DNA of 64,000 nucleotides from the IMG/VR virus record IMGVR_UViG_3300010998_000001, positions 91,477 through 155,476 of that record. One strand, given 5' to 3'. A model generated the notes under the pieces. That model did no database searches. It was not told where the DNA came from and saw only the letters and a list, made by a program, of their open reading frames with translations. The stretch comes from a virus (taxonomy: Duplodnaviria > Heunggongvirae > Uroviricota > Caudoviricetes). The first letter of the stretch is position 1, and each line of letters starts with the position of its first letter. A program made the translations under genes and the position numbers. Positions 27,564 to 44,370 of this stretch are shown piece by piece.

Positions 27564-27616
27564 CTTGACAAATGCAGTGTAGTATGATATAATACAGTTA
27601 CAGTAAATGAGTTACT
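27564..27616 (+). promoter_or_regulatory. Sigma70 promoter with the downstream operator-like palindrome AGTAAATGAGTTACT
   Basis: ttgaca-N17-tataat at 27564-27592; the palindrome is at 27602-27616. Confidence 0.55.
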
Positions 27617-27639
27617 AATCTGATTGGAGGATTTCAAAA

Positions 27640-27804
27640 ATGACATTCAGAGAGTTAATGGACAAACACGGCTATGAAATGATGTTGCTTGATCTGTACG
27701 ACAAGGATGGTAATGAAATAAATCCAGATGAAACGCCAGGAGAAGCAGAGGTTATCGGATATACGGAAGAATCCGGGTTTTGGGATGTTCAGTTAGATTG
27801 GTAA
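27640..27804 (+). CDS. Small protein (54 aa), the first gene after the operator promoter
   Basis: RBS ggagg. Not in the track because it is under 60 aa. Confidence 0.35.
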   Translation: MTFRELMDKHGYEMMLLDLYDKDGNEINPDETPGEAEVIGYTEESGFWDVQLDW

Positions 27805-27819
27805 AGGAGATCGGAAAAC

Positions 27820-28053
27820 ATGATGTATAAGGAACTGAAACAGGCCATTATCAATTGGCTCATGGAACATGAACACACATGGCAGCGAGAGAGCACTTGC
27901 CGCGAGAAATTTCACCCTTACATATACGACGCTGACGGAAACTATCTGATTGGTGGAGTGATCGTTAGTAACTTCATCTCCGCAGCGGACAAGCTCATTT
28001 ACGGCGACGATAAGATGATTAAACAGATCGGAGATTTGAGGCCGATTTTCTGA
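27820..28053 (+). CDS. Hypothetical protein (77 aa)
   Basis: RBS aaggag. Confidence 0.4.
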   Translation: MMYKELKQAIINWLMEHEHTWQRESTCREKFHPYIYDADGNYLIGGVIVSNFISAADKLIYGDDKMIKQIGDLRPIF

Positions 28054-28086
28054 TAAGACAATCTTTTAATTAGGAGGATAAAGAAT

Positions 28087-28290
28087 ATGAACAACAACAA
28101 ATGGTTTGGCATGGTACGCTGGTGCAATGATGATATTGCCGGAAAACTGGAAGATATGGGGATCGAAGCAAGCGAGGAAAATATCGCTGCCGTTCGCAAA
28201 AACTGCGAGAATAACAAATATTTCCGCGACACGATGATCGAAGCCGGATGGGATATGATCGAGGAAGCGATTAATGAAACGCTTGGATAA
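28087..28290 (+). CDS. Hypothetical protein (67 aa)
   Basis: RBS taggagg. Confidence 0.4.
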   Translation: MNNNKWFGMVRWCNDDIAGKLEDMGIEASEENIAAVRKNCENNKYFRDTMIEAGWDMIEEAINETLG

Positions 28291-28342
28291 AACGAAAGTT
28301 TAATCATCTGGAATAGCGCAAAACAAGATAAAGGTGGAAGAT

Positions 28343-28600
28343 ATGAAATACTTCGTTGTTTGGAGATCGAGAAACAATAAGCAATCGAATTACGAGATTT
28401 CAAATTCCAGAAATGCCATGAAACATCTGGAGGAAAAAGATGCTCAAACGGTATGGGTCTACGATAAAGATGGATGGTGGCTTTCATTCGCGGACAGAGA
28501 TCAGAATGGAAAACCTTATCGTCCGCAGATGTGTCCCGATGGCGAGCCGAGAAAATACTATGCGGAGAAATTCAAAGAACTCAACTGTGGAGGCCAATAA
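28343..28600 (+). CDS. Hypothetical protein
   Basis: RBS aaggtggaag. Confidence 0.4.
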   Translation: MKYFVVWRSRNNKQSNYEISNSRNAMKHLEEKDAQTVWVYDKDGWWLSFADRDQNGKPYRPQMCPDGEPRKYYAEKFKELNCGGQ

Positions 28601-28860
28601 TGAAACTAACCAATGAAGATAAAGATTATTTGAAATCCATCGGATATCGTGAAGAGGATTTCGCGCAAATCCAAAGAGCAGCCGGAAAAACTGATTATGA
28701 ATATCAGATGCAGAAGATCGGACAGAAGAAAGCTATGGAGCTTTTGGGACGTAAAAACTATCTAAGTGGGCTTGCAAGAAGCGCTTTTCATTGGACGTGT
28801 GTAAGAGAAAGATTTAATGGAGAAATCGTCTATTTCGATTCTGCTAGACTGTTTAGGTAG
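28600..28860 (+). CDS. Hypothetical protein
   Basis: RBS gtggagg; ATGA overlap with the upstream gene. Confidence 0.4.
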   Translation: MKLTNEDKDYLKSIGYREEDFAQIQRAAGKTDYEYQMQKIGQKKAMELLGRKNYLSGLARSAFHWTCVRERFNGEIVYFDSARLFR

Positions 28861-29070
28861 GTGGAGAATTTGAAAACCAATGACAGGGTAATGATCGTAT
28901 GTTGCGAAGCATCTCCATATAACAATCAAAAAGGTGTTATTGTGCGAACGCAGCTTAATATAGATAAGCATAAACAGGAATCAACAACCTATATTGTTCG
29001 TCTTGATAAACCTCATTGTGCATGGGCCAAAGAGGTTGGTTTTCCAATAGAAGCATTAAGGAGAATTTGA
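28861..29070 (+). CDS. Hypothetical protein (69 aa; possible GTG start)
   Basis: ORF track. Confidence 0.3.
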   Translation: MENLKTNDRVMIVCCEASPYNNQKGVIVRTQLNIDKHKQESTTYIVRLDKPHCAWAKEVGFPIEALRRI

Positions 29071-29071
29071 C

Positions 29072-29335
29072 ATGAAATACACTCTTGAATATCTCGCGGA
29101 CGTGGCGAAATTCTGGTTGGAAAATCAGGTCTATACCAGAACCACATGGAAAGACTTTCAATGCGGAGAATCGACCAGAGCAGATGAGATGGATAATTCC
29201 ATTATCTTCTGGTTTTCTTGCACATATACATGGAAACTTAATTCTTGGGATAAGAATATGTCTAAAGAAATTGGTGTAATCTACATCAAAGAAAAAGATT
29301 CTTGGACTTGCACGGAAGCGGCACTTGCTGAGTAA
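29072..29335 (+). CDS. Hypothetical protein (87 aa)
   Basis: RBS aaggag. Confidence 0.4.
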   Translation: MKYTLEYLADVAKFWLENQVYTRTTWKDFQCGESTRADEMDNSIIFWFSCTYTWKLNSWDKNMSKEIGVIYIKEKDSWTCTEAALAE

Positions 29336-29347
29336 AGGAGCGGAAAA

Positions 29348-30190
29348 ATGAAGCTGATTGATGTCAATAATGAGCGCAGCATGAAACGGGTTATCATGTA
29401 TAACCACGATCAGACGAAAGCGCTGTATCACAATAAGAATCTCATGCACGTCGAAGGAAATCTCTATGTCGGAGAATTTGAATACGATTGCAATGGCCCT
29501 TATTACGACGAGTTTGTTATTTGGCCGGAACTTGATGTCGGTATCTGGTTTGGAGTAGGCAGCGGCAAATGGGAAGAGATTAGTGATACTATGTTCGCCA
29601 TTGAGCGTATGGGTTATGACACGTTGGAAAACTTCAAACAGACAATTCATGCCAGATTGGAAAAGAATGACCATTTCCGTTATACCGAGATCGAAATGAT
29701 GAAGCTCGTGGATGCGTCTATGGTGGATGCTATGCGGGAGTCTCGCGAGCGGTTTGCGGAAAACCGTAGAATCAAAGAAGAAGCCAGACGGAAAGAACAG
29801 GCAGAGCAAGAAGCGGCATTTCTGGCCGAGCGCAAAGAGGAAGCCGAAGAGATTATCAATTCGGCGCTGGAAGTCTTGCGCAATGGTGGAGAGCTTAAAA
29901 ACAATTCTGTGAGCATTTATCGCAGCGAGTACGATCATTCTACTTATAGCATCATCAACTATCTCATGCGCGAGTATGGCGTTAAAGTGCCTATCAAGAC
30001 GCAGGGATGGATCAATAACAGTCTGGTATCTGTTACTATCCAGGATGGAAAATGCGAGCATTGCCGTTATTACAAACACAAAAATGGCAGAGGATCGACA
30101 ACTATTTTCGGCTACATGAATGAACTTATCAAGGCGGTGAGCAAAGATGGAAACATTGGACAAAAGGATTTTGAAGAAGTCGCCGGATGA
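29348..30190 (+). CDS. Hypothetical protein (280 aa) with a central coiled-coil
   Basis: RBS aaggag. Confidence 0.45.
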   Translation: MKLIDVNNERSMKRVIMYNHDQTKALYHNKNLMHVEGNLYVGEFEYDCNGPYYDEFVIWPELDVGIWFGVGSGKWEEISDTMFAIERMGYDTLENFKQTIHARLEKNDHFRYTEIEMMKLVDASMVDAMRESRERFAENRRIKEEARRKEQAEQEAAFLAERKEEAEEIINSALEVLRNGGELKNNSVSIYRSEYDHSTYSIINYLMREYGVKVPIKTQGWINNSLVSVTIQDGKCEHCRYYKHKNGRGSTTIFGYMNELIKAVSKDGNIGQKDFEEVAG

Positions 30191-30299
30191 ACTGGAGGAA
30201 TATTTAGCTTTTAAGCGGCGAGGCTTTAAGATCAATAACAAGAAAGGCAAAGGAAGTTACAAACGTAAGAACAAGCATCCTAAGAGGGAGGAAATTCAA

Positions 30300-30458
30300 T
30301 GAGCATCTATCGGAAAATTTCTTATATCATTATCGCGATCATGGCCTTGATTCTGATGTGGTTTGTAATTAGCTGGGTGGATGTTATCGCACATAATACT
30401 ATGCCCTATGTAATTTATCATAATTGGAATCTCTTTTATATGCTATTTAGTGCATAAC
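30300..30458 (+). CDS. Small membrane protein (52 aa)
   Basis: RBS agggagg; hydrophobic core IIIAIMALILMWFVISW. Confidence 0.3.
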
Positions 30459-30572
30459 AAACTAAAGCAATACATATTCTATTGCGGATCAAATGAGAGG
30501 ATGATATAATAAATCATCATAGCAGCCGCCAGGAAGCGTCTTGACGCGCCGCAATCGCAGGAGATGGAGATT

Positions 30573-30815
30573 ATGGCCTTTACAGAGGAAGAGCGTAGAC
30601 AGCGCAAGAATGAGCGCCAGAGACGGTATTATAGAGAGAATGCAGATAAAGCGCAGCAATACGCAAATGAGTATAATAAGACTAAAATGAAGTCATACGC
30701 ATTTCGGTTTTCATATAAAGAGGATCAGGATATTATTGACTTTCTGGAATCCATAGATAATAAGACAGATTACATTCGGCGGCTTATACGCGCCGATATA
30801 GAAAATAGCACTTGA
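30573..30815 (+). CDS. Ribbon-helix-helix-like small regulator
   Basis: C-terminal KSYAFRFSYKEDQDIIDFLESIDNKTDYIRRLIRADIE resembles a CopG/Arc RHH fold. Confidence 0.4.
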   Translation: MAFTEEERRQRKNERQRRYYRENADKAQQYANEYNKTKMKSYAFRFSYKEDQDIIDFLESIDNKTDYIRRLIRADIENST

Positions 30816-30840
30816 CATTATGCTAGCATTGTGTTATAAT
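30812..30840 (+). promoter_or_regulatory. Sigma70 promoter with the spacer palindrome ATGCTAGCAT and the downstream box GGTAGATCAGGAAAGG
   Basis: ttgaca-ttatgctagcattgtgt-tataat. Confidence 0.55.
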
Positions 30841-30869
30841 ATAGGTAGATCAGGAAAGGAAATTATCAC

Positions 30870-31142
30870 ATGAATAACGTCGATAAGAAGTCTTTGGAAC
30901 ATCTGATGCCGATTGGAGAGTTTGCTGATACCTACCTGTGTTTCATCTCTAAGCATAATAAAGAGGAATATATGTATAGCGTCTTTGATAAGGTGGCCGC
31001 TTGGGTGGAACGAAACGGCGGGAAAATCAAGCGCACAAGCGATAAGAAGATCGTCGGAGATCGCAAGGGTTTTGAATGTAAGATCGTGTTTCCTACCTAT
31101 GGCAAGCGGAACATGAAAGAAATTATGGCTACGCTTTATTAA
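30870..31142 (+). CDS. Hypothetical protein (90 aa)
   Basis: RBS ggaaagga. Confidence 0.4.
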   Translation: MNNVDKKSLEHLMPIGEFADTYLCFISKHNKEEYMYSVFDKVAAWVERNGGKIKRTSDKKIVGDRKGFECKIVFPTYGKRNMKEIMATLY

Positions 31143-31157
31143 TTTGAGCCAAACTGA

Positions 31158-31349
31158 TTGGAGTTTTTGATGGATACAAGAACAGTAGCATGGAATATGA
31201 TGCAAGCTGATAGCATGGAGCGCCGCGAGGCAGAGAAAGCTATCGGAAAGAAGCTTGAGGATATGACAAAAGAAGAAAAAGCCATTGTTGTTGTTTGCAT
31301 AGCAGCCTTTTATGATGAACTCAAAGCTAAATATGAAGTGGAGGATTAA
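31158..31349 (+). CDS. Hypothetical protein (63 aa)
   Basis: ORF track. Confidence 0.35.
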   Translation: MEFLMDTRTVAWNMMQADSMERREAEKAIGKKLEDMTKEEKAIVVVCIAAFYDELKAKYEVED

Positions 31350-31351
31350 AT

Positions 31352-31621
31352 ATGAAAACAATGTCGATTAAATTAGAGCCTTATAATTACGATGTATCTG
31401 ATAATGTATTCAGCATCCTCTTTAATGGTTCTGATAAGGAAACGGAAAATGGATTACAGGAAATTCCGGCAGCAAGTTATCAGCTTATTGTGTCTGCCCT
31501 TCAACTTTGTGCGTATGACAATCTGGATGGCGGAGAGCGAGACATAATTCATACTGCCACGGCGATCATTGAAAGATTGCGCGATCAGCAGAAACTCCGT
31601 GAATGGAGGAGAGAAAATTAA
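31352..31621 (+). CDS. Hypothetical protein (89 aa)
   Basis: RBS gtggagg. Confidence 0.4.
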   Translation: MKTMSIKLEPYNYDVSDNVFSILFNGSDKETENGLQEIPAASYQLIVSALQLCAYDNLDGGERDIIHTATAIIERLRDQQKLREWRREN

Positions 31622-31623
31622 TC

Positions 31624-31818
31624 ATGGATATTTATAGCTTTTGCGAACTGGCAACAGATGATAGCTATGATTGTGCGATCTACGACATGAATGAATCTGT
31701 CGAGCAGGAGGTTTTTCGCGGAACCTTGCGCGAGGCCAGAGACAGCGATTTCAGCGAGTATGATGTTATGAGCTTTGATCTGGATGATGGTGTTATCGTT
31801 CTCAATATTGAGACGTGA
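31624..31818 (+). CDS. Small acidic protein
   Basis: RBS aatggagg. Confidence 0.4.
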   Translation: MDIYSFCELATDDSYDCAIYDMNESVEQEVFRGTLREARDSDFSEYDVMSFDLDDGVIVLNIET

Positions 31819-32229
31819 TGATTTAAGTTTGACTAATTCTGCCTATTTTCTAATTTTGGTATTGACAAATAGAAAATACGATGTTACAATGTAGGCAGTT
31901 GAAAATCAAATCGCCTCATGTAAAAGAGGACGGCATAAACCGTCCTCTCAAGCGGGATTATTTGACGAGTTGCCAAACATATCCGCCAGCAAAAATGATC
32001 CCATAGGAAATCAAGTTTGCCAATATACCAACCAGAAGATTGTGTATAATGTCTATTGCAGACACCTCCTAAAAGTATTTCACAATTAGATTGTGATTCC
32101 TAGTGTGAGTCTTTTAGAAGAATCCCGCACGGTAATTATAGCATTATGATTTTGACTTTTCAACCAAAATAATCCTCCCTCAAATAAGAGGGAGTGATTA
32201 AAGGATTAAACAGAATAACAAACTAAGTA

Positions 32230-32281
32230 TTGACAAAATGAGATTAGTCTGCTATAATACAAGTATAGTAAATGAGTTACT
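32230..32281 (+). promoter_or_regulatory. Sigma70 promoter (extended -10, ctgcTATAAT) with the AGTAAATGAGTTACT operator
   Basis: ttgaca 32230-35, tataat 32254-59, palindrome 32267-81. Confidence 0.55.
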
Positions 32282-32298
32282 TGAAAGGAATGATTGAT

Positions 32299-32607
32299 AT
32301 GCGTCTGACATATTACAGATTTCCAGATGACACCAAAGAGGAAATTCTGCTTGCCAATGGCTGCGCCGTCGTTTTGAAGGATGGAAATGAGATTTATCCA
32401 GAGATCATACCAGATGACAAAAGGTATTTAGTAGATCATATAGATCATTCCATTAATTGTTCCATCTCTTTTGCGAAGAAAATGATGAAACAATATGGCG
32501 GTTGTGGATGGACAGAACATTGTGATCGAGATGGCGGATGTTTTGAAGTAACGGAAATCACTTTGTCAGGTAATAACAGTCATTTCAAATATAACCACCA
32601 TCTTTGA
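32299..32607 (+). CDS. Hypothetical Cys/His-rich protein
   Basis: RBS gaaagga. Track ORF 32272 starts at the ATG embedded in the operator. Confidence 0.4.
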   Translation: MRLTYYRFPDDTKEEILLANGCAVVLKDGNEIYPEIIPDDKRYLVDHIDHSINCSISFAKKMMKQYGGCGWTEHCDRDGGCFEVTEITLSGNNSHFKYNHHL

Positions 32608-32620
32608 GGAGGAAAGGCCA

Positions 32621-32827
32621 ATGCGCGATTACTATTCCGAGATCAGCAAGAAGATTGATTATCTTTCTTCTCATTATTGCGCACATGAGTTTAATCCGCG
32701 AAGCATGGAGCTTTCTTCCTGGATCACAAATCGGATTGACTGGTGTTGGAAATTCAGAAAGATAACAGCGCAGCAGAAAGATGAGCTTTGTAATCGGATG
32801 ATTGTTTACTTTGAAGGCGACTATTAA
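32621..32827 (+). CDS. Hypothetical protein (68 aa)
   Basis: RBS gaggagg. Confidence 0.4.
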   Translation: MRDYYSEISKKIDYLSSHYCAHEFNPRSMELSSWITNRIDWCWKFRKITAQQKDELCNRMIVYFEGDY

Positions 32828-32837
32828 GGAGGATCAA

Positions 32838-33029
32838 ATGACTAGCTATATGATTTACGGACGCAAGCCGGGATTTGGCGAAAAGGAATTTGAGCTTTGT
32901 ATTATGCGCGGCGAAAACATCTTGGGCGCGGTTACTGTGGCCGAGGCTATATATGGAGCAGAGAATGTAACAGCAGCTCGCAGTATGCCTCTAGCCTATA
33001 ATGCGGAATCCTGGGAGAAACCAGAATGA
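32838..33029 (+). CDS. Hypothetical protein
   Basis: RBS aggagg. Confidence 0.4.
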   Translation: MTSYMIYGRKPGFGEKEFELCIMRGENILGAVTVAEAIYGAENVTAARSMPLAYNAESWEKPE

Positions 33030-33280
33030 TTACACGGAACAACATTGATCGTCTGGACAAGATTGTGGCGCATTACGCCATGCAGGATTTCAAGAGGGCA
33101 AATCCGCAGCCAAAACGATATGCCAATGGCAAGACTAATTATAAACCATATAGTCTTTCTCCCTTGACGAATGAGGCCAGAAAGATGTTACATCTTGCGC
33201 GGAAAGAAATGATTACGCCAGAGGAAGAAAGAGAGGTAAAAGCATATCTTTTGAAACACAAGATGTTGTTTGATATGTAA
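33026..33280 (+). CDS. Hypothetical basic protein (84 aa)
   Basis: RBS gggag. Confidence 0.4.
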   Translation: MITRNNIDRLDKIVAHYAMQDFKRANPQPKRYANGKTNYKPYSLSPLTNEARKMLHLARKEMITPEEEREVKAYLLKHKMLFDM

Positions 33281-33610
33281 TGGATTGGATAACATTTGCG
33301 AGCAGATCAGGAATGACGTTGCAGGAAATGCGCGATCTATTTGAAGCTGAAACAGGAATTTCCTTTAGGCATCCATCATGTAATGTGGATGATGATTGCT
33401 GGAAGATGGCACAATTCAAGGAGTGGATTATCCTGAACATTTGACAGCTTCCGCATATTGTTATGATTATATTATATACTATACTTATCAATAATAATAA
33501 CTTTATATAATTATAACAATATAATATATATTAAACTAAGTATAATATAATCCTGTTTAATATACTATACATAAAGTATATCATTTAATATACTATACAT
33601 GGAGGTTTGA

Positions 33611-33934
33611 ATGAAGAGCGGAACATATAGGTGTGTTGACAGAGATCATTATTCGCTTGTCTGGAATGGCCGTGATGATGTAGTCGTAGATCATCCAGAA
33701 TATGATTTGACGATTTCTGTGCGTGATACTGGCAAATCATATATTTTTAATATGCTGGAAAACAATAGCCGTTATATGCCTGGTTATCTGGAAATGCTTT
33801 TTAAGAAACCAAAGGTAACGATCAATAAGGAGAAAAATCCTCATGCGATTTTAGAGGACACACATAATAATAGCTACTTTGTGATTTATCCTTATCGCGG
33901 TGGTGTTCCGTTTACGTTCGATCTGGTTAGCTAG
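33611..33934 (+). CDS. Hypothetical protein (107 aa)
   Basis: RBS ggagg. Preceded by a very AT-rich stretch at 33460-33600. Confidence 0.4.
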   Translation: MKSGTYRCVDRDHYSLVWNGRDDVVVDHPEYDLTISVRDTGKSYIFNMLENNSRYMPGYLEMLFKKPKVTINKEKNPHAILEDTHNNSYFVIYPYRGGVPFTFDLVS

Positions 33935-33943
33935 GAGGATGCT

Positions 33944-34183
33944 ATGAAAAGATTTCTTTCAGATGTTCGCATGTTTTGGAAAGATAATAAGTGGTATGAA
34001 AATATAGTGGCCGCAATTTATTTCATTGGTTGCGTTGGCGCTATTCCGTTTATGATCTTTGTAAATCTTACAGAACAGGATATTGCATGGCGTATTGTTT
34101 CAATCGTTATGATTATTCTGTTTTCCGTCTTATGGGGAGTTTCTATTTTTGCATTGATCGCCGATTATTGTGATTGGTGGTAA
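33944..34183 (+). CDS. Small two-TM membrane protein (79 aa)
   Basis: RBS aggagg; two hydrophobic helices. Confidence 0.4.
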   Translation: MKRFLSDVRMFWKDNKWYENIVAAIYFIGCVGAIPFMIFVNLTEQDIAWRIVSIVMIILFSVLWGVSIFALIADYCDWW

Positions 34184-34310
34184 TGATATGAGATATGTTT
34201 ATCTGTTAGAGAGGATCAGAGATAGCCGCGATTGGCCGAAAGGCACAAGAATATGGGCGCAGCATCCATGTACTGGCTGGCGCATTGTCAGAAAAGAAAA
34301 GGTGAGCTAT

Positions 34311-34343
34311 TGACAATCCGCGCAGCTTTGCATACAATATAAG
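34311..34343 (+). promoter_or_regulatory. Sigma70 promoter (TTGACA-N17-TACAAT) followed by a ~160-nt structured leader
   Basis: ttgaca-atccgcgcagctttgca-tacaat. A 10-bp hairpin at 34427-34460 (CCGATAGGAC / GTCTTATCGG) is followed by GGGCTTTTTTG. Confidence 0.45.
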
Positions 34344-34508
34344 TGAACCTATAAAGAGTACGCGAGGGACAAGCCCAATGACCGTACAGCAACCTACCAT
34401 CTGGCAAGGTGCTAAAGCTTGACCGATAGGACTGAATGTGGTCTTATCGGAAACGATAGGGCTTTTTTGTTACTCTTTTTTGGTAATAAATTTTTAGGAG
34501 TTGACAGT

Positions 34509-34829: not shown

Positions 34830-34901
34830 AGTGCTTGCAATCTGTTTAACATTGTGGTATGTTGGCAATAGTTACTAATACCACGATGGAGGTTTGAAAT
34901 A

Positions 34902-35234: not shown

Positions 35235-35297
35235 TTTCATTCGGTCTGGCGCTTGTCAGACCGTTTGAAAAATCTTTTGAGAAAAACAAAATAACGC

Positions 35298-35349
35298 TTG
35301 ACAATTTCGATTTGGTATGCTATAATGCAAGTACAGTAAATGAGTTACC
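35298..35349 (+). promoter_or_regulatory. Sigma70 promoter with the AGTAAATGAGTTACC operator
   Basis: ttgaca 35298-303, tataat 35321-26, palindrome 35335-49. Confidence 0.55.
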
Positions 35350-35369
35350 AATCGAAAGGAGATCAAGAA

Positions 35370-35576
35370 ATGCACGTCTATGTTATTCAGTACGATGATA
35401 TTTACTTTGGATCGAAGATTTCCCAGGAAGGGTATAGCAGCCTGAAGGCGGCGCAGAAGTTTGTGGCGAGCCGCCCAGGAAATCATGTGATGGTGAATAA
35501 TTACCGCTATGAGGCTTCCACTTATTCCTACACCATCATTGACGTACAGATTAAGGAGGACATGGACAATGCGTAA
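35370..35576 (+). CDS. Hypothetical protein (68 aa)
   Basis: RBS gaaaggag. Confidence 0.4.
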   Translation: MHVYVIQYDDIYFGSKISQEGYSSLKAAQKFVASRPGNHVMVNNYRYEASTYSYTIIDVQIKEDMDNA

Positions 35577-36072
35577 TCTCCAACAGATCACAGGCAAGTG
35601 CATGGATGAGCTGGAAGCTATCGGGATCGAGCTTGGCCGTGTCGAAAATGTCATTGTCAATACCCGTGCTGTCAAGCGCTGGGGCCAGTGTAAGAAGCTA
35701 GCATCCGGGGGATTTGAGATTAATATTTCCTCCAGGCTGTTAGATGAGAGTGCGCCGGAAATCAGTCTGAAAAACACTATCATCCATGAGCTTTTACATA
35801 CTTGCCGCAATTGTATGAACCACGGAGCGGAATGGAAGTATCTGGCGCAGAAAGTCAATCGCGCTTATCCTCAGTACAACATCAAAAGAACAGCATCCGC
35901 GAGTGAATATCAGATGTCGGAGGCAGAAGTCGAGCGGAAAGCAAAGTATATCTTGGAGTGTAAGAAGTGCGGAAACAAGCTTTTCCGCTATCGTGAAAGC
36001 GATCTTATTCGCAATCCTGGTAACTATCGCTGTGCGAAATGCAAGGGCGATTTTCAAAGAGTTATCGCGTAA
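35569..36072 (+). CDS. SprT-like zinc metalloprotease with a C-terminal zinc ribbon
   Basis: HELLH (HExxH) plus CKKCG...CAKCKG. Confidence 0.55.
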   Translation: MRNLQQITGKCMDELEAIGIELGRVENVIVNTRAVKRWGQCKKLASGGFEINISSRLLDESAPEISLKNTIIHELLHTCRNCMNHGAEWKYLAQKVNRAYPQYNIKRTASASEYQMSEAEVERKAKYILECKKCGNKLFRYRESDLIRNPGNYRCAKCKGDFQRVIA

Positions 36073-36728: not shown

Positions 36729-36744
36729 TGGGTGACATGGGATA

Positions 36745-36981: not shown

Positions 36982-36993
36982 CGGAGGAAGAAA

Positions 36994-38214
36994 ATGAAAT
37001 TTATCGCGGATGGTTATGATATTCAGGATGCTATCAACAAGGCGCTTGTTGTTTGTCCGAAGAAATCTACATTCGATAATATGACTACGCTGTATATCAA
37101 GGCCGTAGAGGGCCAGGACGTGGCTGTGTGCGCCGTTAGTATGACAGACTATATCCGAGCATACATAAGGGCTGACGTGCTGGAAGAGGGCGCTGTAATG
37201 ATCTCTCGCGGCGAGATCGAAAAGGTATATAAGATTGATAATCTTGTTACGGTAGAAGCTCATAATGATATGTTTACTATGAGCAATGGCAAGAAGCGCC
37301 GCACGGTACACACATATGAGATGAGCAGCGGCACAAATGAAACGGAGTCGAATTTCCTTCATTGGAGCATCGGCAAGAATGATTTTTCGGAGATTTTTCT
37401 TTCCTGTAATTGCGGCGATTTTTTGGCCGCGCTTGAAAAGCTGAAGGATTTTACAGGAAATGATGCAAAGAAGCTTATCTATACTGGCTTTCATCTGAAT
37501 AGCGCGCGGCACATGATTGAAGCTTGCAATGGCTATGCCGCAGCTTGGAAACGCCTGGATGCCGGATGGTATAGCAATCAGGATTTGATTCTGACACATA
37601 CGATTCTGCCTATGATGAAGAAGATTGCCAGCACAAAGCGAGACAAGCGAGAGGATATTTCTTTCTATATTGGCGAGTATGGAAACATGAAGCTCGTTAA
37701 GATAACGGGTGAGAATTATGAGTATTATACCAGCCGATATGAGGGAGAATATATCAACCTTGAAAAATCCATTGGAGGTCTGGAAACGAATTATCTTGTG
37801 ACGGTCGATGCGGATGATGTATCTGATGTGGCGCAGGATTTCATTAACAGCTCGCAGGAGGCGCTTACGAAAGGCGTATTTGTCGCGGCAGATAAACAGT
37901 ATGGATTTGCTGTGGCGATCAATGCAAGCGATTTTAGAGGCATTGAGATAGTCGATGGAAGTAATACGTCTCGCGCAATAGATGATCGTGTTATTGTGAG
38001 GATCAATCCTATCTATCTCAAGACCGCCATGGATTTCTTTAAGAAGGAACGAGTTTATATTTCTATCAAGAGCAATACAGCGCCCATCATCATCACAAAT
38101 GAGGAAGATATTTATGATGTTGATGATCTGGCATTTATTCTTCCGGCGCGTTATCACGCGGTAGAGATTGACACAATTAGCGGTATGTTTGACGATCTGA
38201 TTTCTGGACGCTAA
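36994..38214 (+). CDS. DnaN-like DNA polymerase sliding clamp (beta-clamp family)
   Basis: The ~400-aa size, the MKF...KAL N-terminus and the C-terminal ...INPIYLKTAMDFF...APIIIT...LAFILPAR pattern are typical of DnaN. Confidence 0.5.
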   Translation: MKFIADGYDIQDAINKALVVCPKKSTFDNMTTLYIKAVEGQDVAVCAVSMTDYIRAYIRADVLEEGAVMISRGEIEKVYKIDNLVTVEAHNDMFTMSNGKKRRTVHTYEMSSGTNETESNFLHWSIGKNDFSEIFLSCNCGDFLAALEKLKDFTGNDAKKLIYTGFHLNSARHMIEACNGYAAAWKRLDAGWYSNQDLILTHTILPMMKKIASTKRDKREDISFYIGEYGNMKLVKITGENYEYYTSRYEGEYINLEKSIGGLETNYLVTVDADDVSDVAQDFINSSQEALTKGVFVAADKQYGFAVAINASDFRGIEIVDGSNTSRAIDDRVIVRINPIYLKTAMDFFKKERVYISIKSNTAPIIITNEEDIYDVDDLAFILPARYHAVEIDTISGMFDDLISGR

Positions 38215-38220
38215 AAGACA

Positions 38221-38264
38221 TTGACGATATGCGGAGGGAGTGTTATTATAGTAAATGAATTACT
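38221..38264 (+). promoter_or_regulatory. Sigma70 promoter (TTGACG-N17-TATTAT) whose operator AGTAAATGAATTACT contains the start codon of the HTH gene (near-leaderless)
   Basis: The ATG at 38255 lies inside the palindrome at 38250-64, only ~6 nt after the -10. Confidence 0.5.
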
Positions 38265-38578
38265 TGAATAATGCGATCTCCGCAAAGAAAAGAGCGAGAC
38301 AGATGAAGATTGAAAAAGAGATATTAGAGCTATACGCCCTGTGGGATGCTACACAAAGCCATGTGATAGCCGAAAATGTAGAAAAGAAAATCTTTGAAGT
38401 ACATAACATCAAAAATTGGGAAGAGAAACTAAAGACACTTGCTAATTTGACTGGTTCGAGTAATCATGCTGTATATGCCTGGATGAACAGAGGAAGAGAG
38501 CGAGTCAAGATTCCATTTATCAAGCTATGTGTAATAGCGAATGAATACAATTTGAGCATGAAAGACTTACTTACATAA
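38255..38578 (+). CDS. XRE/Cro-type helix-turn-helix regulator (candidate repressor for the AGTAA-N5-TTACT operators)
   Basis: HTH-like LANLTGSSNHAVYAWMNRGRERVKIPFIKLCVIANEYNLSMKDLL. Confidence 0.5.
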   Translation: MNYLNNAISAKKRARQMKIEKEILELYALWDATQSHVIAENVEKKIFEVHNIKNWEEKLKTLANLTGSSNHAVYAWMNRGRERVKIPFIKLCVIANEYNLSMKDLLT

Positions 38579-38611
38579 ATATTTTTAAGTAATTTGAAAT
38601 GAGGATAGACA

Positions 38612-38812
38612 ATGTATTATTTTTACGGTATGAGATTACGCGGCTTTTCGCCTGGATGCCAGCCGATGGATGGGCTGATTAGCCGCATTGATTCGACAAG
38701 TAAACGGTATTGGGATATTCTGATTTACAATCGTAAGCTGACAGAGAAAGAAGAATTTGGATATGATTTGGATTGGCTCTATCAGAAGGAAGAAATAGAG
38801 GATATTCTATGA
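38612..38812 (+). CDS. Hypothetical protein (66 aa)
   Basis: RBS aatgagga. Confidence 0.4.
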   Translation: MYYFYGMRLRGFSPGCQPMDGLISRIDSTSKRYWDILIYNRKLTEKEEFGYDLDWLYQKEEIEDIL

Positions 38813-39009
38813 CACCAGAAACAGCAGCCATGATCCAAGAAGGGATGTGGCAATTAAATTTGTTAAAGGAAATACCTAAAGTAATTGGTTTTTGTGACAA
38901 ATGTGGAGGGCCAATTTTCGCAAATCAGTTTTATGTGGCCGAACCAAATGGTGATGGACGCGCCGATTTTTGGTGTGTTGTGTGTGCCAATACTGCGATA
39001 GGAGAATGA
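38809..39009 (+). CDS. Small zinc-ribbon protein
   Basis: CDKCGG...CVVC. Confidence 0.4.
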   Translation: MTPETAAMIQEGMWQLNLLKEIPKVIGFCDKCGGPIFANQFYVAEPNGDGRADFWCVVCANTAIGE

Positions 39010-39010
39010 C

Positions 39011-39174
39011 ATGGAAACAAAATTCTATAAGCGTGGCAAACTGAACGATAAGAAAATCATTGAGGCATTGAAGGACGCTATCAAGGATTATGAGGATGGT
39101 GCAATCATTGAATGCCGCGATATCCTTCAGGATGTTATTGATTCGATCAACGAATTTGAAGATAATCAGGAATA
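39011..39174 (+). CDS. Small protein (54 aa)
   Basis: RBS taggaga. Confidence 0.3.
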
Positions 39175-39405
39175 ATGTATAACAAAATTAGGATTGATAC
39201 CTATTATGATCTGACTTGCGACAACTGCGCCAGAAGTTGGAGTACAGATTTTGATTATGTCAGCAAGAAGATGAATCAACTTAATGTGGGAGGCATGGGT
39301 ATGGCGATGGATCGTAATTCTCTTTATCATATGGCCTATAAAGCGGGTTGGAAGTGCAGAAAAGGAAAGACGCTATGCCCTGAGTGTTTGCAGAATGTGG
39401 AGTAA
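39175..39405 (+). CDS. Small zinc-finger protein (76 aa)
   Basis: CDNC...CPEC. Confidence 0.4.
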   Translation: MYNKIRIDTYYDLTCDNCARSWSTDFDYVSKKMNQLNVGGMGMAMDRNSLYHMAYKAGWKCRKGKTLCPECLQNVE

Positions 39406-39409
39406 AACA

Positions 39410-39646
39410 ATGAGAACTAAGTTTTGTAAAGATGGTGAGCTGCTATATACAGAGATCAGCGCAGAATTGAAGTATGCCGAAGATGATCTAATGTCCGGCG
39501 ACCTGACGGGCTGTGCCGCAAGTCTGCAAGATATTCTTGATTCTCTGACAGAGAAGAAGAGATACGATGCTGGGCTGATTGCTACGGCGACACCTGTATG
39601 GACGTGGCGCGACAAGCTGAAAAGGTTTGTACTTGAAAAATTTTAA
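39410..39646 (+). CDS. Hypothetical protein
   Basis: RBS gtggag. Confidence 0.4.
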   Translation: MRTKFCKDGELLYTEISAELKYAEDDLMSGDLTGCAASLQDILDSLTEKKRYDAGLIATATPVWTWRDKLKRFVLEKF

Positions 39647-39664
39647 GAAATACCAAACTAATGC

Positions 39665-39716
39665 TTGACATATTGGTGATGATATGTTATAATGCAATTA
39701 CAGTAAATAAGTTACC
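39665..39716 (+). promoter_or_regulatory. Sigma70 promoter with the AGTAAATAAGTTACC operator
   Basis: ttgaca 39665-70, tataat 39688-93, palindrome 39702-16. Confidence 0.55.
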
Positions 39717-39740
39717 AATATGTAAAGGAGATACATAACG

Positions 39741-41654
39741 ATGATGAACGTAACGATCAATGAGAAGATGAACGGGATCGAGCTTCGCTTTGATGGCAAG
39801 CCGGAGCGGGATGTTCTTACCGCGCTGAAGGCTAATGGTTTCTGTTGGAGCAATCGCCAGAAGATGTGGTACGCGAAGAATACCGACGAGCGCATGGAGT
39901 TTGTGACCGCGCTTGGCGAGGGTGATATTTCTTATGAGAAAAACGAGAAAACAAACTCAAGCTTGACTTATGACCTTTGGGCAATGACCCGCGTTGATGA
40001 TCTGATTCCCGGTAAGTCTTATACGGATCGTCTTGGAAGCGGTATGAGTTGCAAGGAAATCGCCGCGATTATTCGCAAGCATATCCGCGCCCGTTTCCCG
40101 ATGTGTAAGTTCTCCGTTACCAGCGATTACAATAGCATCAACATTGATCTCCTGGCTGGCCCTTGGGCGAAGGATAGTGGCGAGATCGCCGCGATTGCAG
40201 AGTATGTCTATCGCTTCACCCGGCAGTATAACTATGACAATAGCGACAGCATGAGTGATTATTTCGATGTCGGCTTTTATGGTGTGTATGGCGCTTCCAG
40301 CATCCTCTCTTACCATTACGAGCAGCGGGAGCAGACTGTGGCCGAGATGAACATTGCCGCCGAGTTCCAGCAGCAGCGCGAGGCGTATGAGGTTCGGAAA
40401 GCCAAAGAGGAAAGGGAAAAGCTTGAGCGCCGCATGAAGGAGCTTGAGATTGAGCGAGAGAAGGCCGCGATCCGTGCCGAAGAAGAGAAACGCGAGATTG
40501 CCGCCATTGAGAACGGCTCTCAGGTTTCCGATTGCGATTTCTGGTGCGACAACCTTTGGACTACCAATATCAACAAGCTTGATTCTGCGGCGGCTTATGA
40601 GCGTTACCGTGATAGCGAAGAGGAATGCATTGAGATTAACCGCGAGACTTGCCATGTTGTGCGTGGTGTGAATATGAGTGCCGAGATTTATGCTATGTTC
40701 TCCCGCCATCTTCTTTCTGATTTCTCCTTCCTTGAGCATATGGGCGGGACTAGCACGGATGATCTTCGCATCACTTCCGACCTGGATTATGTGCGCATGA
40801 GCAAGGAAGAGCGCGAGAGTGTCAAGTTTTATTGCGATAAGTGCGTGGCTATTTATTGCGCCAAAGAAAATTCGTCGGATTGTGAACTGAAAATGGTGGT
40901 TGATCCCCAGGGCTTTAGCTATGCGCGTTATGTGTATTTCGTGGATGAGGAATCCGACGTGGATTGTAGCCACGATGCCGAGGCCAATCGCGGCATTACC
41001 TATGAAGAGCTTGAGGATAACAAAGTTGCCGCCGATGGTCTTGAGGATGCCAGCACGGAAGTTATCATGGACAATGATATGGTTGGCACTTGGAACAAGG
41101 AACGGCGCGAGGAATACAAAATCAAGTTTGTGGAGTATCTGAAAGATCATCCTATGCGTTTTGATGCTGCCGCGATCCGCGCCATGGAGAATAGGGAGCT
41201 GAAGGAAATGCTCTATGATATTCTCAATAGTCCGCTGAATGCCGTGTATCAGTTTTCGGTTTCTGGCCTGAATCCTGGTGATAAGTTCTCTCTGTTCCGC
41301 ATTGGCGATTTCGGAATGTTTGAGAAAATCTATGGCGTATTTGTCGGATACGAGGTTAAGAAGTATGCGCAGTATGATAACGCTGTTTGCCTGATGTTCA
41401 AGCGCGAGCATGGCCGCACGGTGTATCAGATGTATATTTACCGTGACTGTCTGATTTATAAGGACTGGCTTGAGCTGCCGGAGGGGCTGTTTTGGGAAGA
41501 GCTTGAAAGCTCTTCGGGGCTTTGCACGATCAAGCATGGTAAGTTTATGTCATGCGACAATCAGCAGTATGATGTGACTATGGATTATCTCGCGGAGCAT
41601 GAGCATTATCCTGTTGTGAACACCTATAAGCCGATCTTTAAGCGCTGCGTATGA
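39741..41654 (+). CDS. Large hypothetical protein (637 aa) with a central charged coiled-coil; visibly more GC-rich than its neighbours
   Basis: RBS aaaggag. The N-terminus reads NGIELRFDGKPERDVLTALKANGFCWSNRQKMWYA. A long shadow ORF on the opposite strand is consistent with the higher G+C. Confidence 0.5.
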   Translation: MMNVTINEKMNGIELRFDGKPERDVLTALKANGFCWSNRQKMWYAKNTDERMEFVTALGEGDISYEKNEKTNSSLTYDLWAMTRVDDLIPGKSYTDRLGSGMSCKEIAAIIRKHIRARFPMCKFSVTSDYNSINIDLLAGPWAKDSGEIAAIAEYVYRFTRQYNYDNSDSMSDYFDVGFYGVYGASSILSYHYEQREQTVAEMNIAAEFQQQREAYEVRKAKEEREKLERRMKELEIEREKAAIRAEEEKREIAAIENGSQVSDCDFWCDNLWTTNINKLDSAAAYERYRDSEEECIEINRETCHVVRGVNMSAEIYAMFSRHLLSDFSFLEHMGGTSTDDLRITSDLDYVRMSKEERESVKFYCDKCVAIYCAKENSSDCELKMVVDPQGFSYARYVYFVDEESDVDCSHDAEANRGITYEELEDNKVAADGLEDASTEVIMDNDMVGTWNKERREEYKIKFVEYLKDHPMRFDAAAIRAMENRELKEMLYDILNSPLNAVYQFSVSGLNPGDKFSLFRIGDFGMFEKIYGVFVGYEVKKYAQYDNAVCLMFKREHGRTVYQMYIYRDCLIYKDWLELPEGLFWEELESSSGLCTIKHGKFMSCDNQQYDVTMDYLAEHEHYPVVNTYKPIFKRCV

Positions 41655-41770
41655 AAACCTTACTCATCATTTGTGTGTGTCTGTTCTGTGTATCATCCAC
41701 CTTTGTTTGGTACGCAGAACAGAAGATAAACGAGTTAAAACCAAATCGAAAAAGGAGAAAGAGACAACGC

Positions 41771-42169
41771 ATGAAAAAGAAAGACGTTCCCACCTTGCAG
41801 GAATTGGCCGTGTTTCTGCGAAATGCGGCGTATGCCAATAATCATAATCTCTATATTGACTGGAATCTAAGTATCATCCATCCAAAGCTCCCGAATGGTG
41901 ACATTGGTTATACTGGCGGTATTTGGTTCCGATCAATCAGCAAGGAATATCAAGAGGAAGTCTATGCAAATAGGGGAACGGATAAACATGTTTCCATTTC
42001 CTTCTCCTATGCGGAGAGCCAGGGCATTACCAATTTCCAATACTTTACGGATGATGACAAGGTATCATATGAGAGCATTGAATTTGAGGCTTTCAAGAAG
42101 ATTGTGATTGATGCTTTCCATATTAAAAAGCTTTATTGTCCTCCTAGCGAGAGGAAGGAAAACAAATAA
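41771..42169 (+). CDS. Hypothetical protein (alternative start for track ORF 41651)
   Basis: RBS aaaaggag. Confidence 0.35.
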   Translation: MKKKDVPTLQELAVFLRNAAYANNHNLYIDWNLSIIHPKLPNGDIGYTGGIWFRSISKEYQEEVYANRGTDKHVSISFSYAESQGITNFQYFTDDDKVSYESIEFEAFKKIVIDAFHIKKLYCPPSERKENK

Positions 42170-42513
42170 TGGAAGATAGAACAATCAAGTTTATACGCGC
42201 CATTAAAGGTGGAATAGAATTTCGCCCGACGATTGAAGAGACGGCAGTAGCGTTTATGTCTGATTATTCTGGCGTTCCTGAAAGCCGTTATACCAATGAT
42301 TTGCTTTTCAAAATTGTCAAAGATTTCTTTCTTGACTTTCTGAAAACTGCGGATAACCCGTCTTTTGAAATGTGGCGTTTCTTTGATGTGAAGTATAAGG
42401 CATTTGAAACAAGAGATGATACTTATGCTATGCTGGTGACTATGCAGCTCGCGCAAGTGCGTAATGACGATGGATATGTCAATGGTTTTCGTGATTTGGA
42501 AACCGTCAAATGA
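42169..42513 (+). CDS. Hypothetical protein (114 aa)
   Basis: RBS gaggaagga. Confidence 0.4.
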   Translation: MEDRTIKFIRAIKGGIEFRPTIEETAVAFMSDYSGVPESRYTNDLLFKIVKDFFLDFLKTADNPSFEMWRFFDVKYKAFETRDDTYAMLVTMQLAQVRNDDGYVNGFRDLETVK

Positions 42514-42596
42514 AATGTGAGTTTTATCGGCAAAAAATATCAATATATAGTGGAGTGGTAATGTTATAACCACAATATATAGTGGAGGCGAAGAAG

Positions 42597-42782
42597 ATGC
42601 GAGTACGAAGGATGACAATGGCCGAGGGAATGCGGTGGAATCTGTCTCAATACCCGAATTTTTCAGCTACGGGAAGCATTCGCGGCATGAAAGAGAAGTA
42701 TTACGGCAAAGATGCTTTGCTTGTTCGCTGCGGTGGTTTCATCTATAAGGTTCCGGCGAATGTTTATTATGCTGCCTCTTAA
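42597..42782 (+). CDS. Small basic protein
   Basis: RBS ggaggcg. Confidence 0.35.
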   Translation: MRVRRMTMAEGMRWNLSQYPNFSATGSIRGMKEKYYGKDALLVRCGGFIYKVPANVYYAAS

Positions 42783-42800
42783 AGAAAAACAAAATAATGC

Positions 42801-42852
42801 TTGACAACTGCTAATTAGTATGCTATAATACAACCATAGTAAATGAGTTACT
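42801..42852 (+). promoter_or_regulatory. Sigma70 promoter with the AGTAAATGAGTTACT operator, driving the integrase
   Basis: ttgaca 42801-06, tataat 42824-29, palindrome 42838-52. Confidence 0.55.
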
Positions 42853-42870
42853 AATTAGGAGGTAACGATC

Positions 42871-43830
42871 ATGGCACAGACGGCAAGAAAGATGGACGAG
42901 AGCGGAATCATTAACTTCTTTGATTTCTGTGAGCCGCGCCAGGAAGCAGAACAGGACAAAGCTCCGAAACTCAAGAAGGATGGCACTCCTAAAACCATCG
43001 TTTGCAACAAGAAGAGGGGCCGTAAGTCTGAGGTTTACACTCTTGAAATTGCGGACATGAAGAAAATCATTCGTTATTTTGAGGACACCGGGCGCTGGAT
43101 TCATTACCTTCTTTTCGTGATGAGCTGCAACATGGCTCGCCGCGTTGGTGATACTCTCAATCTCCGCTGGTGCAACTTCTATAATGAAGATGGTTCTTTC
43201 CGCAGAGATATTTTTGAGATCGTCGAGGATAAGACCGATAAGCTGGCGAATCCTCATATCAATTCCGCAGTAAGAGCCGCTATTCAGAAGTACATTGAAA
43301 TGACTGGCTGCGATCCTGCCGCGAATGAGTATCAAAACTATGTGTTCCTTCAGTTATCCGGCACACACAAGGGGGCGGTTCTTAGCTACAGCGCGTATAT
43401 GAAGGCTCTGAAAAAGGCGGGAGAGGAAGTCGGTATTGAGTACAATATCGGTACGCACAGCCCTCGCAAAACCTTTGGTATGATGTCCCGTATGCTTCAT
43501 CCCAATGACTATGACAGCATGGAGCTGTTGCAGACTGTTTTCAATCACTCCGATACCAAGACCACGAAACATTACATTGGCTTGACGAAGAAGAAGATTG
43601 ACCAGTATTATGATGATATGGGCGCGTTCTTTGATGCATATGTTACTGGCGACCAGGAATATATCGCGGTCAGCGATAAGCCGATTATCAGCATTGACAT
43701 AAATGATATGCGTGATCTTCTGATGGCTGCTATCAAGGCTGGCTTTGAATCCGGCAAAAACGGCGATCCAGCTTCCATGATGGACAAGTTTAATGAAATG
43801 ATGGAAATGCTGGATACCATGAGAAAGTGA
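42871..43830 (+). CDS. int: Tyrosine recombinase / phage integrase
   Basis: ARRVGDTLNLRW (Arg I), GTHSPRKTFG (His-x-x-Arg) and HSDTKTTKHYIGL (catalytic Tyr). Confidence 0.75.
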   Translation: MAQTARKMDESGIINFFDFCEPRQEAEQDKAPKLKKDGTPKTIVCNKKRGRKSEVYTLEIADMKKIIRYFEDTGRWIHYLLFVMSCNMARRVGDTLNLRWCNFYNEDGSFRRDIFEIVEDKTDKLANPHINSAVRAAIQKYIEMTGCDPAANEYQNYVFLQLSGTHKGAVLSYSAYMKALKKAGEEVGIEYNIGTHSPRKTFGMMSRMLHPNDYDSMELLQTVFNHSDTKTTKHYIGLTKKKIDQYYDDMGAFFDAYVTGDQEYIAVSDKPIISIDINDMRDLLMAAIKAGFESGKNGDPASMMDKFNEMMEMLDTMRK

Positions 43831-43839
43831 GGAAACACA

Positions 43840-44115
43840 ATGAATCCGAAGCGTTACGCGGAGCTGCTTGAGTTCATCCAAAAGAATAATGGATGGGGGC
43901 CGAGCATGGCAAAGAGTCTTTACCAGAAAAAGCGACGGTGTTTCAAATATGTAACCGCTGATTTTGATACAAGAACTGGCCGAGTATGGAGGATTGTCCT
44001 CAGAAGTGGATTGCCGGAGCGTGAAAAAGAATTTCTTGTTAATACGCAGGATGATGTGTATGCTCTATATGAGTATCTGAATACGCCCTATGAGGCTTCT
44101 GACGAGGCGACATGA
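43840..44115 (+). CDS. Hypothetical protein (91 aa)
   Basis: RBS gaggaaac. Confidence 0.4.
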   Translation: MNPKRYAELLEFIQKNNGWGPSMAKSLYQKKRRCFKYVTADFDTRTGRVWRIVLRSGLPEREKEFLVNTQDDVYALYEYLNTPYEASDEAT

Positions 44116-44309
44116 AAGAATATAAGGGAATACCAAAGAACGATATAGGCTGGGTGGAAATCCGCACAGACAGTGGCGATCTGTATTACATCACATCTAA
44201 GAAAGATCGGGAGGTATATTATCTTTATAAGATCGAAGATGATACGGCAAAGCTCATGGGTCAGTCTCAAAATCCATTGAAGCTAGAGGAAAAGTTTATA
44301 AGAAGATAA
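44112..44309 (+). CDS. Hypothetical protein (65 aa)
   Basis: ORF track. Confidence 0.35.
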   Translation: MKEYKGIPKNDIGWVEIRTDSGDLYYITSKKDREVYYLYKIEDDTAKLMGQSQNPLKLEEKFIRR

Positions 44310-44320
44310 CAAACTAAAAC

Positions 44321-44370
44321 TTGACAAAAACATAACTTTGTGATATTCTACATATAGTAACTGAGTTACT
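44321..44370 (+). promoter_or_regulatory. Sigma70-like promoter with the near-perfect palindrome AGTAACTGAGTTACT, driving the MazF-like gene
   Basis: ttgaca 44321-26; palindrome 44356-70. Confidence 0.5.

Follow-up and report, generated by a model that had tools for sequence, protein, structure and literature searches.

Seven promoters in one stretch of an uncultured tailed phage carry the same short palindrome at their presumed transcription starts, and the question that this raises is which protein reads it. The stretch, referred to here as the window, comprises 64,000 nucleotides of a Caudoviricetes genome (positions 91,477 to 155,476 of IMG/VR virus record IMGVR_UViG_3300010998_000001). 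It encodes a small helix-turn-helix (HTH) protein of the XRE family, an integrase-like recombinase, and a protein with the fold of MrpR, a repressor of the Bacillus phage SPbeta. With a probability of roughly 60%, and on sequence comparison, we take the 91-aa HTH protein (38303-38578, + strand) to be the binder of an operator that forms a 17-bp dyad centred near +8. The presence and absence of site and gene across related phages favors the HTH protein, rather than its MrpR-like or integrase-like neighbor, as the site’s partner.

A scan of the window with the pattern AGTAANNNNNTTACT (AGTAA-N5-TTACT) returned five exact matches, starting at 27602, 32267, 38250, 42838, and 44356, against 0.03 expected from shuffled sequence, and allowing one mismatch added two further promoter-linked copies, at 35335 and 39702, each ending in TTACC. 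All seven lie on the + strand, each just downstream of a sigma-A-type -10 hexamer (0-8 nt gap), and the shared palindrome described by an earlier, sequence-only reading of this DNA is thereby confirmed. The same reading called the promoters near-consensus, and a promoter scan agrees: those at 27565, 32230, 35298, 39665, and 42801 match TTGACA-17-TATAAT with a TG extension at 12 of 12 positions, and those at 38221 and 44321 score 10 of 12. The remaining one-mismatch matches in the window (5291, 11363, 20796, and 45598) all lack a promoter in front of them; the one at 20796, rejected as an operator, falls among TGGTAAAT repeats in an AT-rich non-coding region. By alignment and an nhmmer profile, six of the seven sites belong to copies of a single module of ~80 bp, AACAAACTAATGC-TTGACA-N17-TATAAT-N6/8-AGTAAATGAGTTACT. 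The copy at 38250 has a weaker promoter (TTGACG-17-TATTAT), is without the upstream part of the module, and holds its palindrome flush to the -10, with TATTAT running directly into AGTAA; the placement 7-9 nt downstream of the -10 that had been given for every site is therefore correct for six and wrong for this one. On the assumption that transcription begins 7 nt past the -10, the 15-mer occupies +3 to +17 at five sites, as had been stated for all of them; for 44356 the span is +1 to +15, and for 38250 it is -6 to +9. Palindrome-less copies of the module (class B, the palindrome-bearing ones being class A) also occur, at 44852, 45986, 50402, 57868, 59007, and 19314 (- strand), and the one at 59007 resembles a decayed operator, GTAgATGAGggAC.

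The shape of the site becomes clearer when relatives of the phage are included. Some 60 related loci, designated below by L numbers, were fetched through their MrpR-like, HTH, and integrase-like proteins, and ~30 related phages were compared. In 65 distinct promoter-associated sites from these phages, the palindrome resolves into a 17-bp dyad, YAGTAAAT-G-ANTTACTR, at about -1 to +16; it is symmetric at seven of its eight position pairs, and its GTAA and TTAC arms are invariant. The spacing from the -10 to GTAA is most commonly 7 nt, and in most cases the dyad lies 0-9 nt past the -10. These features are what a promoter-proximal operator over the start site, of a size suited to a dimeric HTH protein, would be expected to show, and the earlier proposal of such an operator is upheld at this level; the candidate target sequence of the HTH dimer is the dyad form YAGTAAATGANTTACTR.

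Across the related phages, the presence of the site follows that of the HTH gene. Every phage with the main type of HTH gene has one to seven promoter sites (L088 has one, elsewhere than at its integrase promoter), and these tend to lie in front of the LPD29, integrase, and PemK orthologues and of the HTH gene itself. Sites are absent from the HTH-less phages in which the MrpR-like, integrase-like, and PemK genes are kept (L006, L033, L035, L039, L041, L049-52, L089, and L090), and in L033 and L039 the usual slot behind the clamp gene is without the HTH gene. Such phages are interspersed with HTH-bearing ones in both the integrase-like and the MrpR-like trees, which points to several independent losses. 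At the integrase promoter the site is present in 14 of 15 HTH-bearing phages versus none of 12 HTH-less ones (Fisher p = 7.5e-7, uncorrected for phylogeny), where a mere AGTAAA half-site is kept. As an independent case, site and gene are also found together in L079, a chromosomal island of Candidatus Pseudoruminococcus type with an HTH homologue (E 4e-34) whose operon promoter is followed by ATAGTAAATGAATTAC; this island has neither an MrpR-like gene nor a gene for the integrase-like recombinase. Finally, diverged HTH subtypes in which Y58 is replaced are paired with altered sites, namely AGTAAA-N4-ATAC in the L015 type and CTGTGTC-N3-GACACAG at the own promoter of L080, a possible case of covariation between HTH subtype and site.

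Two of these loci have further features. The L079 homologue is 165 aa long and lies in a two-gene operon (9100-10500) on a small island beside lepA, outside any SPbeta-like phage, and it occurs on many Candidatus Pseudoruminococcus or Ruminococcus contigs. In L016 (4159-4400, equivalent to 6827-6600 on the - strand of L003), a tRNA-like sequence beginning GCGGTGGCGGAATAGGTAGACGC, for which ARAGORN makes no call, immediately follows a dyad promoter; a GmrSD-like gene comes next, and after it the HTH gene.

The open reading frame (ORF) at 38255-38578 had been described as an XRE/Cro-type HTH gene, and structure prediction points the same way. The AlphaFold2 (AF2) model, built from 42 homologues, reaches a predicted local distance difference test score (pLDDT) of 96.1 and a predicted template modeling score (pTM) of 0.85, and its closest Foldseek neighbors are XRE HTH domains: the HppE N-terminal domain, 3op9, C.AhdI, SinR, DdrO, P22 c2, and lambda repressor (probability ~1, root-mean-square deviation 2.1-2.9 Å over ~70 of the 91 residues). 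The family comprises 115 unnamed, metagenomic clusters, four of which carry a precomputed Pfam HTH_26 assignment. Residues V57, Y58, A59, W60, and N62 of the recognition helix are invariant or nearly so among the 42 homologues, which fits the invariance of the operator arms. The HTH gene’s own promoter bears the site in the window and in L009, L013, L014, L019, L021, and L026; in the window, L021, and L026 the operator lies flush to the -10 (TATAAT-A-GTAA geometry), an arrangement that fits tight autoregulation.

One part of the earlier description of this gene has to be given up. The mechanical ORF opens at ATG 38255, inside the palindrome, and this codon had been taken as the start of the HTH gene, which would make its mRNA leaderless or nearly so. 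In all homologues the alignment begins at residue 17, the position of ATG 38303 (MKIEKEILEL...), and ATG 38255 is simply the ATG present within each copy of AGTAAATGA; with that codon part of the operator consensus and the homologous N-termini at ATG 38303, the leaderless reading is unsupported. There is a likeness to the lambda cI transcript from PRM in that here, too, an ATG lies ~6 nt past a -10-like hexamer, but the homologues of the HTH protein start 16 codons further on, and a 5' leader of ~48 nt is likelier.

If the HTH protein does bind the dyad, the seven promoters would form a simple repression circuit. While the protein is scarce, the consensus sigma-A promoters would fire strongly; as it accumulates, a dimer would settle across the transcription start, from roughly -1 to +16 in general and from -6 to +9 in front of its own gene, and block binding of RNA polymerase, open-complex formation, or promoter escape. 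Seven transcription units would be turned down, and they include the genes that had been named as downstream of the palindrome. Three are operons of small early genes. The first has its -35 at 27565-27570, its -10 at 27588-27593, and its operator AGTAAATGAGTTACT at 27602-27616 (module 27565-27616), and its genes run from 27640; the second (32230-32281) has operator AGTAAATGAGTTACT at 32267-32281 and starts at ATG 32299; the third (35298-35349) has operator AGTAAATGAGTTACC at 35335-35349 and runs from 35370, with genes for an SprT-like protein (35509-36072) and for one that resembles a sliding clamp (36994-38214). The HTH operon follows from its promoter TTGACG-17-TATTAT at 38221-38264, where operator AGTAAATGAATTACT (38250-38264) abuts the -10; this site, the nearest of all to its -10, would provide negative autoregulation. 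The class A promoter at 39665-39716 (operator AGTAAATAAGTTACC, 39702-39716) drives the gene of the 637-aa LPD29-domain protein (39741-41654), and that at 42801-42852 (operator AGTAAATGAGTTACT, 42838-42852) drives the gene of the integrase-family recombinase. The last promoter, TTGACA-17-TATTCT at 44321-44370, bears a perfect-dyad variant of the operator, AGTAACTGAGTTACT (44356-44370), and drives a PemK/MazF-like toxin gene (44471-44854; Pfam E 9e-21). All seven units lie on the + strand. The MrpR-like gene has an operator-free promoter and would thus escape control by the HTH protein. Such a circuit may serve lysogeny or the shut-off of early genes.

The toxin gene merits a brief comment of its own. 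In almost all relatives it immediately precedes the MrpR-like gene, and no obvious antitoxin accompanies it; its product, 51-70% identical among relatives, is one of the best-conserved proteins of the module. Lysis-lysogeny control in SPbeta and phi3T works through host MazEF.

The proposed circuit has close parallels among XRE-type phage repressors and C-proteins, such as those of lambda, 434, and P22, C.AhdI, and SinR. Shared features include a small five-helix HTH domain, a dyad operator of 14-18 bp that overlaps the core promoter or start, several operators per genome, and an operator at the regulator’s own promoter for autoregulation. There are differences as well: the sequence of the protein in the window matches no curated HTH family significantly, its operators stand singly at seven dispersed promoters rather than in the tripartite OR/OL arrangement of a lambda-type switch, and it has no LexA-like cleavage domain and coexists with a candidate repressor of recombinase fold.

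Several observations weigh against the HTH protein as the reader of the dyad. Both the transcription starts and the binding are assumed or predicted from sequence. The Foldseek E-values are only 0.02-0.3, the protein of the window has no Pfam match at E <= 0.01 (HTH_26 is matched at E 0.015 in two of 10 family members, and PHROG 8 at E 0.0048), and a profile search of the PDB gave nothing significant (E > 0.2). The HTH gene was looked for within ~10 kb of the anchor gene, so that some phages scored as lacking it may carry it out of range, and shared ancestry is not accounted for in the co-occurrence statistic. The pairing itself has exceptions, too: L044 bears a single site although no HTH gene was detected in it; L004 and L008 have the gene with no site at its promoter; HTH-bearing phages of the L015 type carry only variant sites; and L080, with a diverged HTH protein, bears a canonical-like site at its PemK promoter. 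Finally, the ATGA spacer is conserved, one position pair is asymmetric, and the orientation to the promoter is constant, none of which a purely symmetric dimer predicts; descent of the promoter modules from one shared copy could be the source of this conservation.

The most serious rival to the HTH protein is the protein encoded by the MrpR-like gene (44925-45947, + strand), 340 aa long and 6 kb downstream of the HTH gene. It has a tyrosine-recombinase fold, and the best matches of its AF2 model (pLDDT 85) are MrpR (8a0a), YopR (8bj6), and DNA-bound SroF (9rd5), at E ~1e-8, four orders of magnitude better than its matches to true recombinases. The kinship is visible by fold comparison only: a match to the N-terminal Pfam domain MrpR_N_CB is sub-threshold, sequence and profile searches of the PDB gave no match, and BLASTP of both recombinase-like proteins against SPbeta YopR and YopP found nothing significant. 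A word-indexed search placed ~10 metagenomic clusters in the family, with no Pfam domain, and across 10 homologues there is neither an invariant His nor an invariant Arg in the catalytic domain. In every case the gene is served by a short-leader promoter of its own, which in the window is TTGACA-17-TACATT (44873-44901, + strand), immediately upstream, operator-free, and with an equivalent at the same place in relatives.

With such a neighbor in a window that is itself SPbeta-like and encodes a YonO-type RNA polymerase, a recombinase-fold repressor is the obvious alternative binder, and the dyad would then be the equivalent of SPBRE, read by a master repressor of lysogeny. In SPbeta, copies of the 15-bp SPBRE at ~10 promoters are the binding sites of MrpR (PMC10516654), and phi3T SroF binds as a monomer to a 26-bp box, with a LexA-controlled antirepressor encoded nearby (bioRxiv 10.1101/2025.11.27.690993). 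Both systems belong to large phages with a YonO-type RNA polymerase and links to MazF-type toxins, both place an element of ~15 bp, palindromic in SPBRE as in the window, at ~7-10 early promoters and often between the -10 and the ribosome-binding site (RBS) (PMC10516654), and in both a degenerate recombinase-fold protein ends a module that includes an integrase-like gene. In L012 and L018 the MrpR-like gene is followed by a promoter with LexA boxes, which resembles the situation of the Sar antirepressor gene of SPbeta and phi3T (bioRxiv 10.1101/2025.11.27.690993).

That the dyad is an SPBRE analogue was in fact the first working hypothesis, and it was abandoned on the phylogenetic profile, because the dyad tracks the HTH gene and not the MrpR-like gene. 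At least 10 relatives, phages or prophages, keep the MrpR-like gene and have no dyads, and L079 has dyad and HTH gene without it. Between site-bearing phages the identity of the MrpR-like proteins is just 32-55%, yet the dyad is invariant, and SroF proteins at 30% identity recognize different motifs (bioRxiv 10.1101/2025.11.27.690993). SroF, as a monomer on an asymmetric box of 24-26 bp, is also a poor model for a 17-bp dyad, and the dyad AGTAAATGAGTTACT has no sequence similarity to either SPBRE (AAATACAAAnAATATGTATAT) or the phi3T box (CAGTAATTTTATTTTTATTCTTAATG). Other differences from the SPBRE/MrpR system include the absence of BLAST-level similarity to YopR or YopP, the failure to see arbitrium genes or a LexA box in the window, and hosts among the Ruminococcaceae rather than Bacillus. 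A search of the full 64 kb for the LexA box GAAC-N4-GTTC was negative. We regard the MrpR-like protein as an unlikely reader of the dyad; its probable role is that of a separate master repressor that acts at a site of its own. One comparison was set aside, namely L084, which has no dyads and an MrpR-like protein 88% identical to that of the site-rich L054; it is not a clean control, since just the gene and its promoter are shared with L054. The LexA-box promoters of L012 (11084-11150) and L018 (11068-11140), with a further example in L011 (9894), are consensus promoters with LexA (Cheo) boxes, GAACATTTGTTC and GAACAGGGGTTCGGAACGTATGTTC, directly downstream of the MrpR-like gene, an arrangement reminiscent of the Sar antirepressor that LexA controls in SPbeta and phi3T.

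A different sequence might serve as the site of the MrpR-like protein. With up to one mismatch, AAACAAACTAA occurs 22 times in the window, where 2.25 copies are expected; nearly all of the copies lie on the transcribed strand, and they are placed either at -37 to -47 of promoters or in leaders 10-25 nt upstream of the RBS; examples are found at 19293 (- strand), 21345, 21702, 23604, 27551, 36072, 45993, 46073, 50411, and 59102. Related phages have a different, phage-specific motif in both settings. This box could, speculatively, be the target of the MrpR-like protein or else an RNA or translation signal. Box similarity correlates with identity of the MrpR-like proteins (Spearman 0.51), but overall relatedness confounds the correlation, and no argument is built on it. 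It is tempting to suggest a two-tier scheme of repression, which we hold to be possible although doubtful. In the first tier, an MrpR/SroF-like master repressor may act on a fast-evolving, phage-specific box of the AAACAAACTAA type, which nearly all early units carry either ahead of the -35 or within the leader. The second tier would be a detachable layer of XRE protein and dyad, which may have been lost independently several times, its operators decaying to half-sites. In a bolder variant, the MrpR-like protein itself may read the dyad.

That the palindrome forms a 5'-terminal RNA hairpin had also been raised. An RNA role, be it as a hairpin that affects how stable transcripts are or how they are processed, or as an RNA motif to which a protein binds, is now very improbable. 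The predicted start, 1-2 nt before the palindrome, would put it at the extreme 5' end of transcripts, and both the constant orientation to transcription and the conserved ATGA spacer would suit such a role. The isolated hairpin is worth a mere -0.6 kcal/mol, though, and it is outside the minimum-energy fold in four of seven leaders, with z-scores near 0. In addition, the arms are invariant across the 65 sites with no compensatory change, and the variants TTACC and ATAC break pairs. At the HTH-gene promoters, finally, the site begins 0-1 nt past the -10, so that its 5' arm lies upstream of the expected start and would not be transcribed whole.

Equally little can be said for the recombinase as the reader of the dyads, be they regulatory or recombination sites. 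This 319-aa tyrosine recombinase (42871-43830, + strand; Pfam integrase family, E 9.5e-13) has no core-binding (CB) domain at its N terminus, and the catalytic R..HxxR..H..Y residues are invariant in its family (R91, H196, R199, H226, and Y235). It occurs in ~30 related phages and has an acidic C-terminal extension of ~70 aa. As a binder it has some appeal, being the best conserved of the module’s candidates (46-89% identity) and having a dyad at its promoter in nearly all site-bearing phages, and tyrosine recombinases do bind inverted repeats. Against this, the gene persists with intact catalytic residues in dyad-free, HTH-less phages and is missing from L079, where the dyad is present; moreover, seven direct-oriented recombination sites in 17 kb would delete the region, and the arms are far shorter than usual recombinase half-sites. 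Least probable of all is a Ruminococcaceae host regulator whose operator sites the phage adopted, for the constancy of the dyad across phages with diverged regulators of their own is offset by the loss of dyads from HTH-less relatives, including the prophage of an isolate, Ruminococcus sp. YE282 (L089), and by the lack of a LexA box in the window, and we know of no Firmicute operator that matches the dyad, although no search aimed at one was made.

The wider setting of the circuit, on which the sequence-only reading did not remark, is that of a distant SPbeta-like phage. A YonO-type RNA polymerase with the fold of RNA-dependent RNA polymerases (RdRPs) is encoded at 10436-12520 (- strand), and its closest relatives are found in Enterocloster phages, Clostridium phage c-st, and SPbeta-like Bacillus phages. 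The relatives of the window are IMG/VR contigs of 100-165 kb together with contigs of metagenome-assembled genomes and isolates of Ruminococcus, Acutalibacteraceae, and other Clostridia, with a conserved gene order of clamp, HTH protein, LPD29 protein, integrase-family protein, PemK toxin, and a protein of 330-340 aa. Neither megablast of the region 27-45 kb nor tblastn of the MrpR-like protein found a match among 50,697 phage records (INPHARED), and a literature search on YonO with Ruminococcus phages found nothing relevant.

Other features of the window include many small genes on the + strand and a third class of promoter, in which a different palindrome, CACAATGCAAGCATTGTG (variant ATGCTAGCAT), lies between the -35 and the -10 (23565-23600, 26124-26160, and 30812-30840), suggesting a second pair of operator and regulator. 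A SAM-I riboswitch (34346-34462, + strand; Rfam RF00162, 60.4 bits, E 1.7e-11) is preceded by a promoter, TTGACA-17-TACAAT at 34310, and overlaps a terminator-like hairpin (34440-34463); the same leader is present in L033, L035, L041, L044, and L078. There are 16-17 tRNA genes, at 58036-63848 (+ strand) and 4601-9366 (- strand), among them one (58036-58111) whose anticodon is called as four bases and another (58685-58756), of anticodon TCA, that is called ‘SeC’ and could be a UGA suppressor. The class B promoters at 57868 and 59007 precede tRNA clusters; nearby, a CCA-adding enzyme is encoded at 49157-50428 and an RlaP-like protein at 48131-49156. Finally, the divergently transcribed arms are separated by ~2 kb of AT-rich non-coding sequence (19330-21300) with iteron-like repeats, including CCCAATTTATGGGAAC-like copies at ~19855, 19932, and 20150 and four of TGGTAAAT at 20796-20870; this region may be a replication origin.

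An HTH dimer that occludes the start site would be a textbook mechanism, and the switch described here would in that sense be an ordinary one, in a group of phages that has not been studied. What the analysis provides is a testable regulatory map for the uncultured phages of ~100-165 kb that infect gut and rumen Ruminococcaceae, comprising an operator, a candidate repressor, seven target promoters, and relatives that serve as natural ‘knock-outs’. The consensus promoters and compact operator could also be parts of genetic tools for the Ruminococcaceae. Proteins of the MrpR/SroF fold, studied so far in Bacillus SPbeta-like phages only, have structural relatives in phages of Clostridia, and, should the two-tier scheme be true, the MrpR-like protein would be the first master repressor of recombinase fold outside Bacillus phages.

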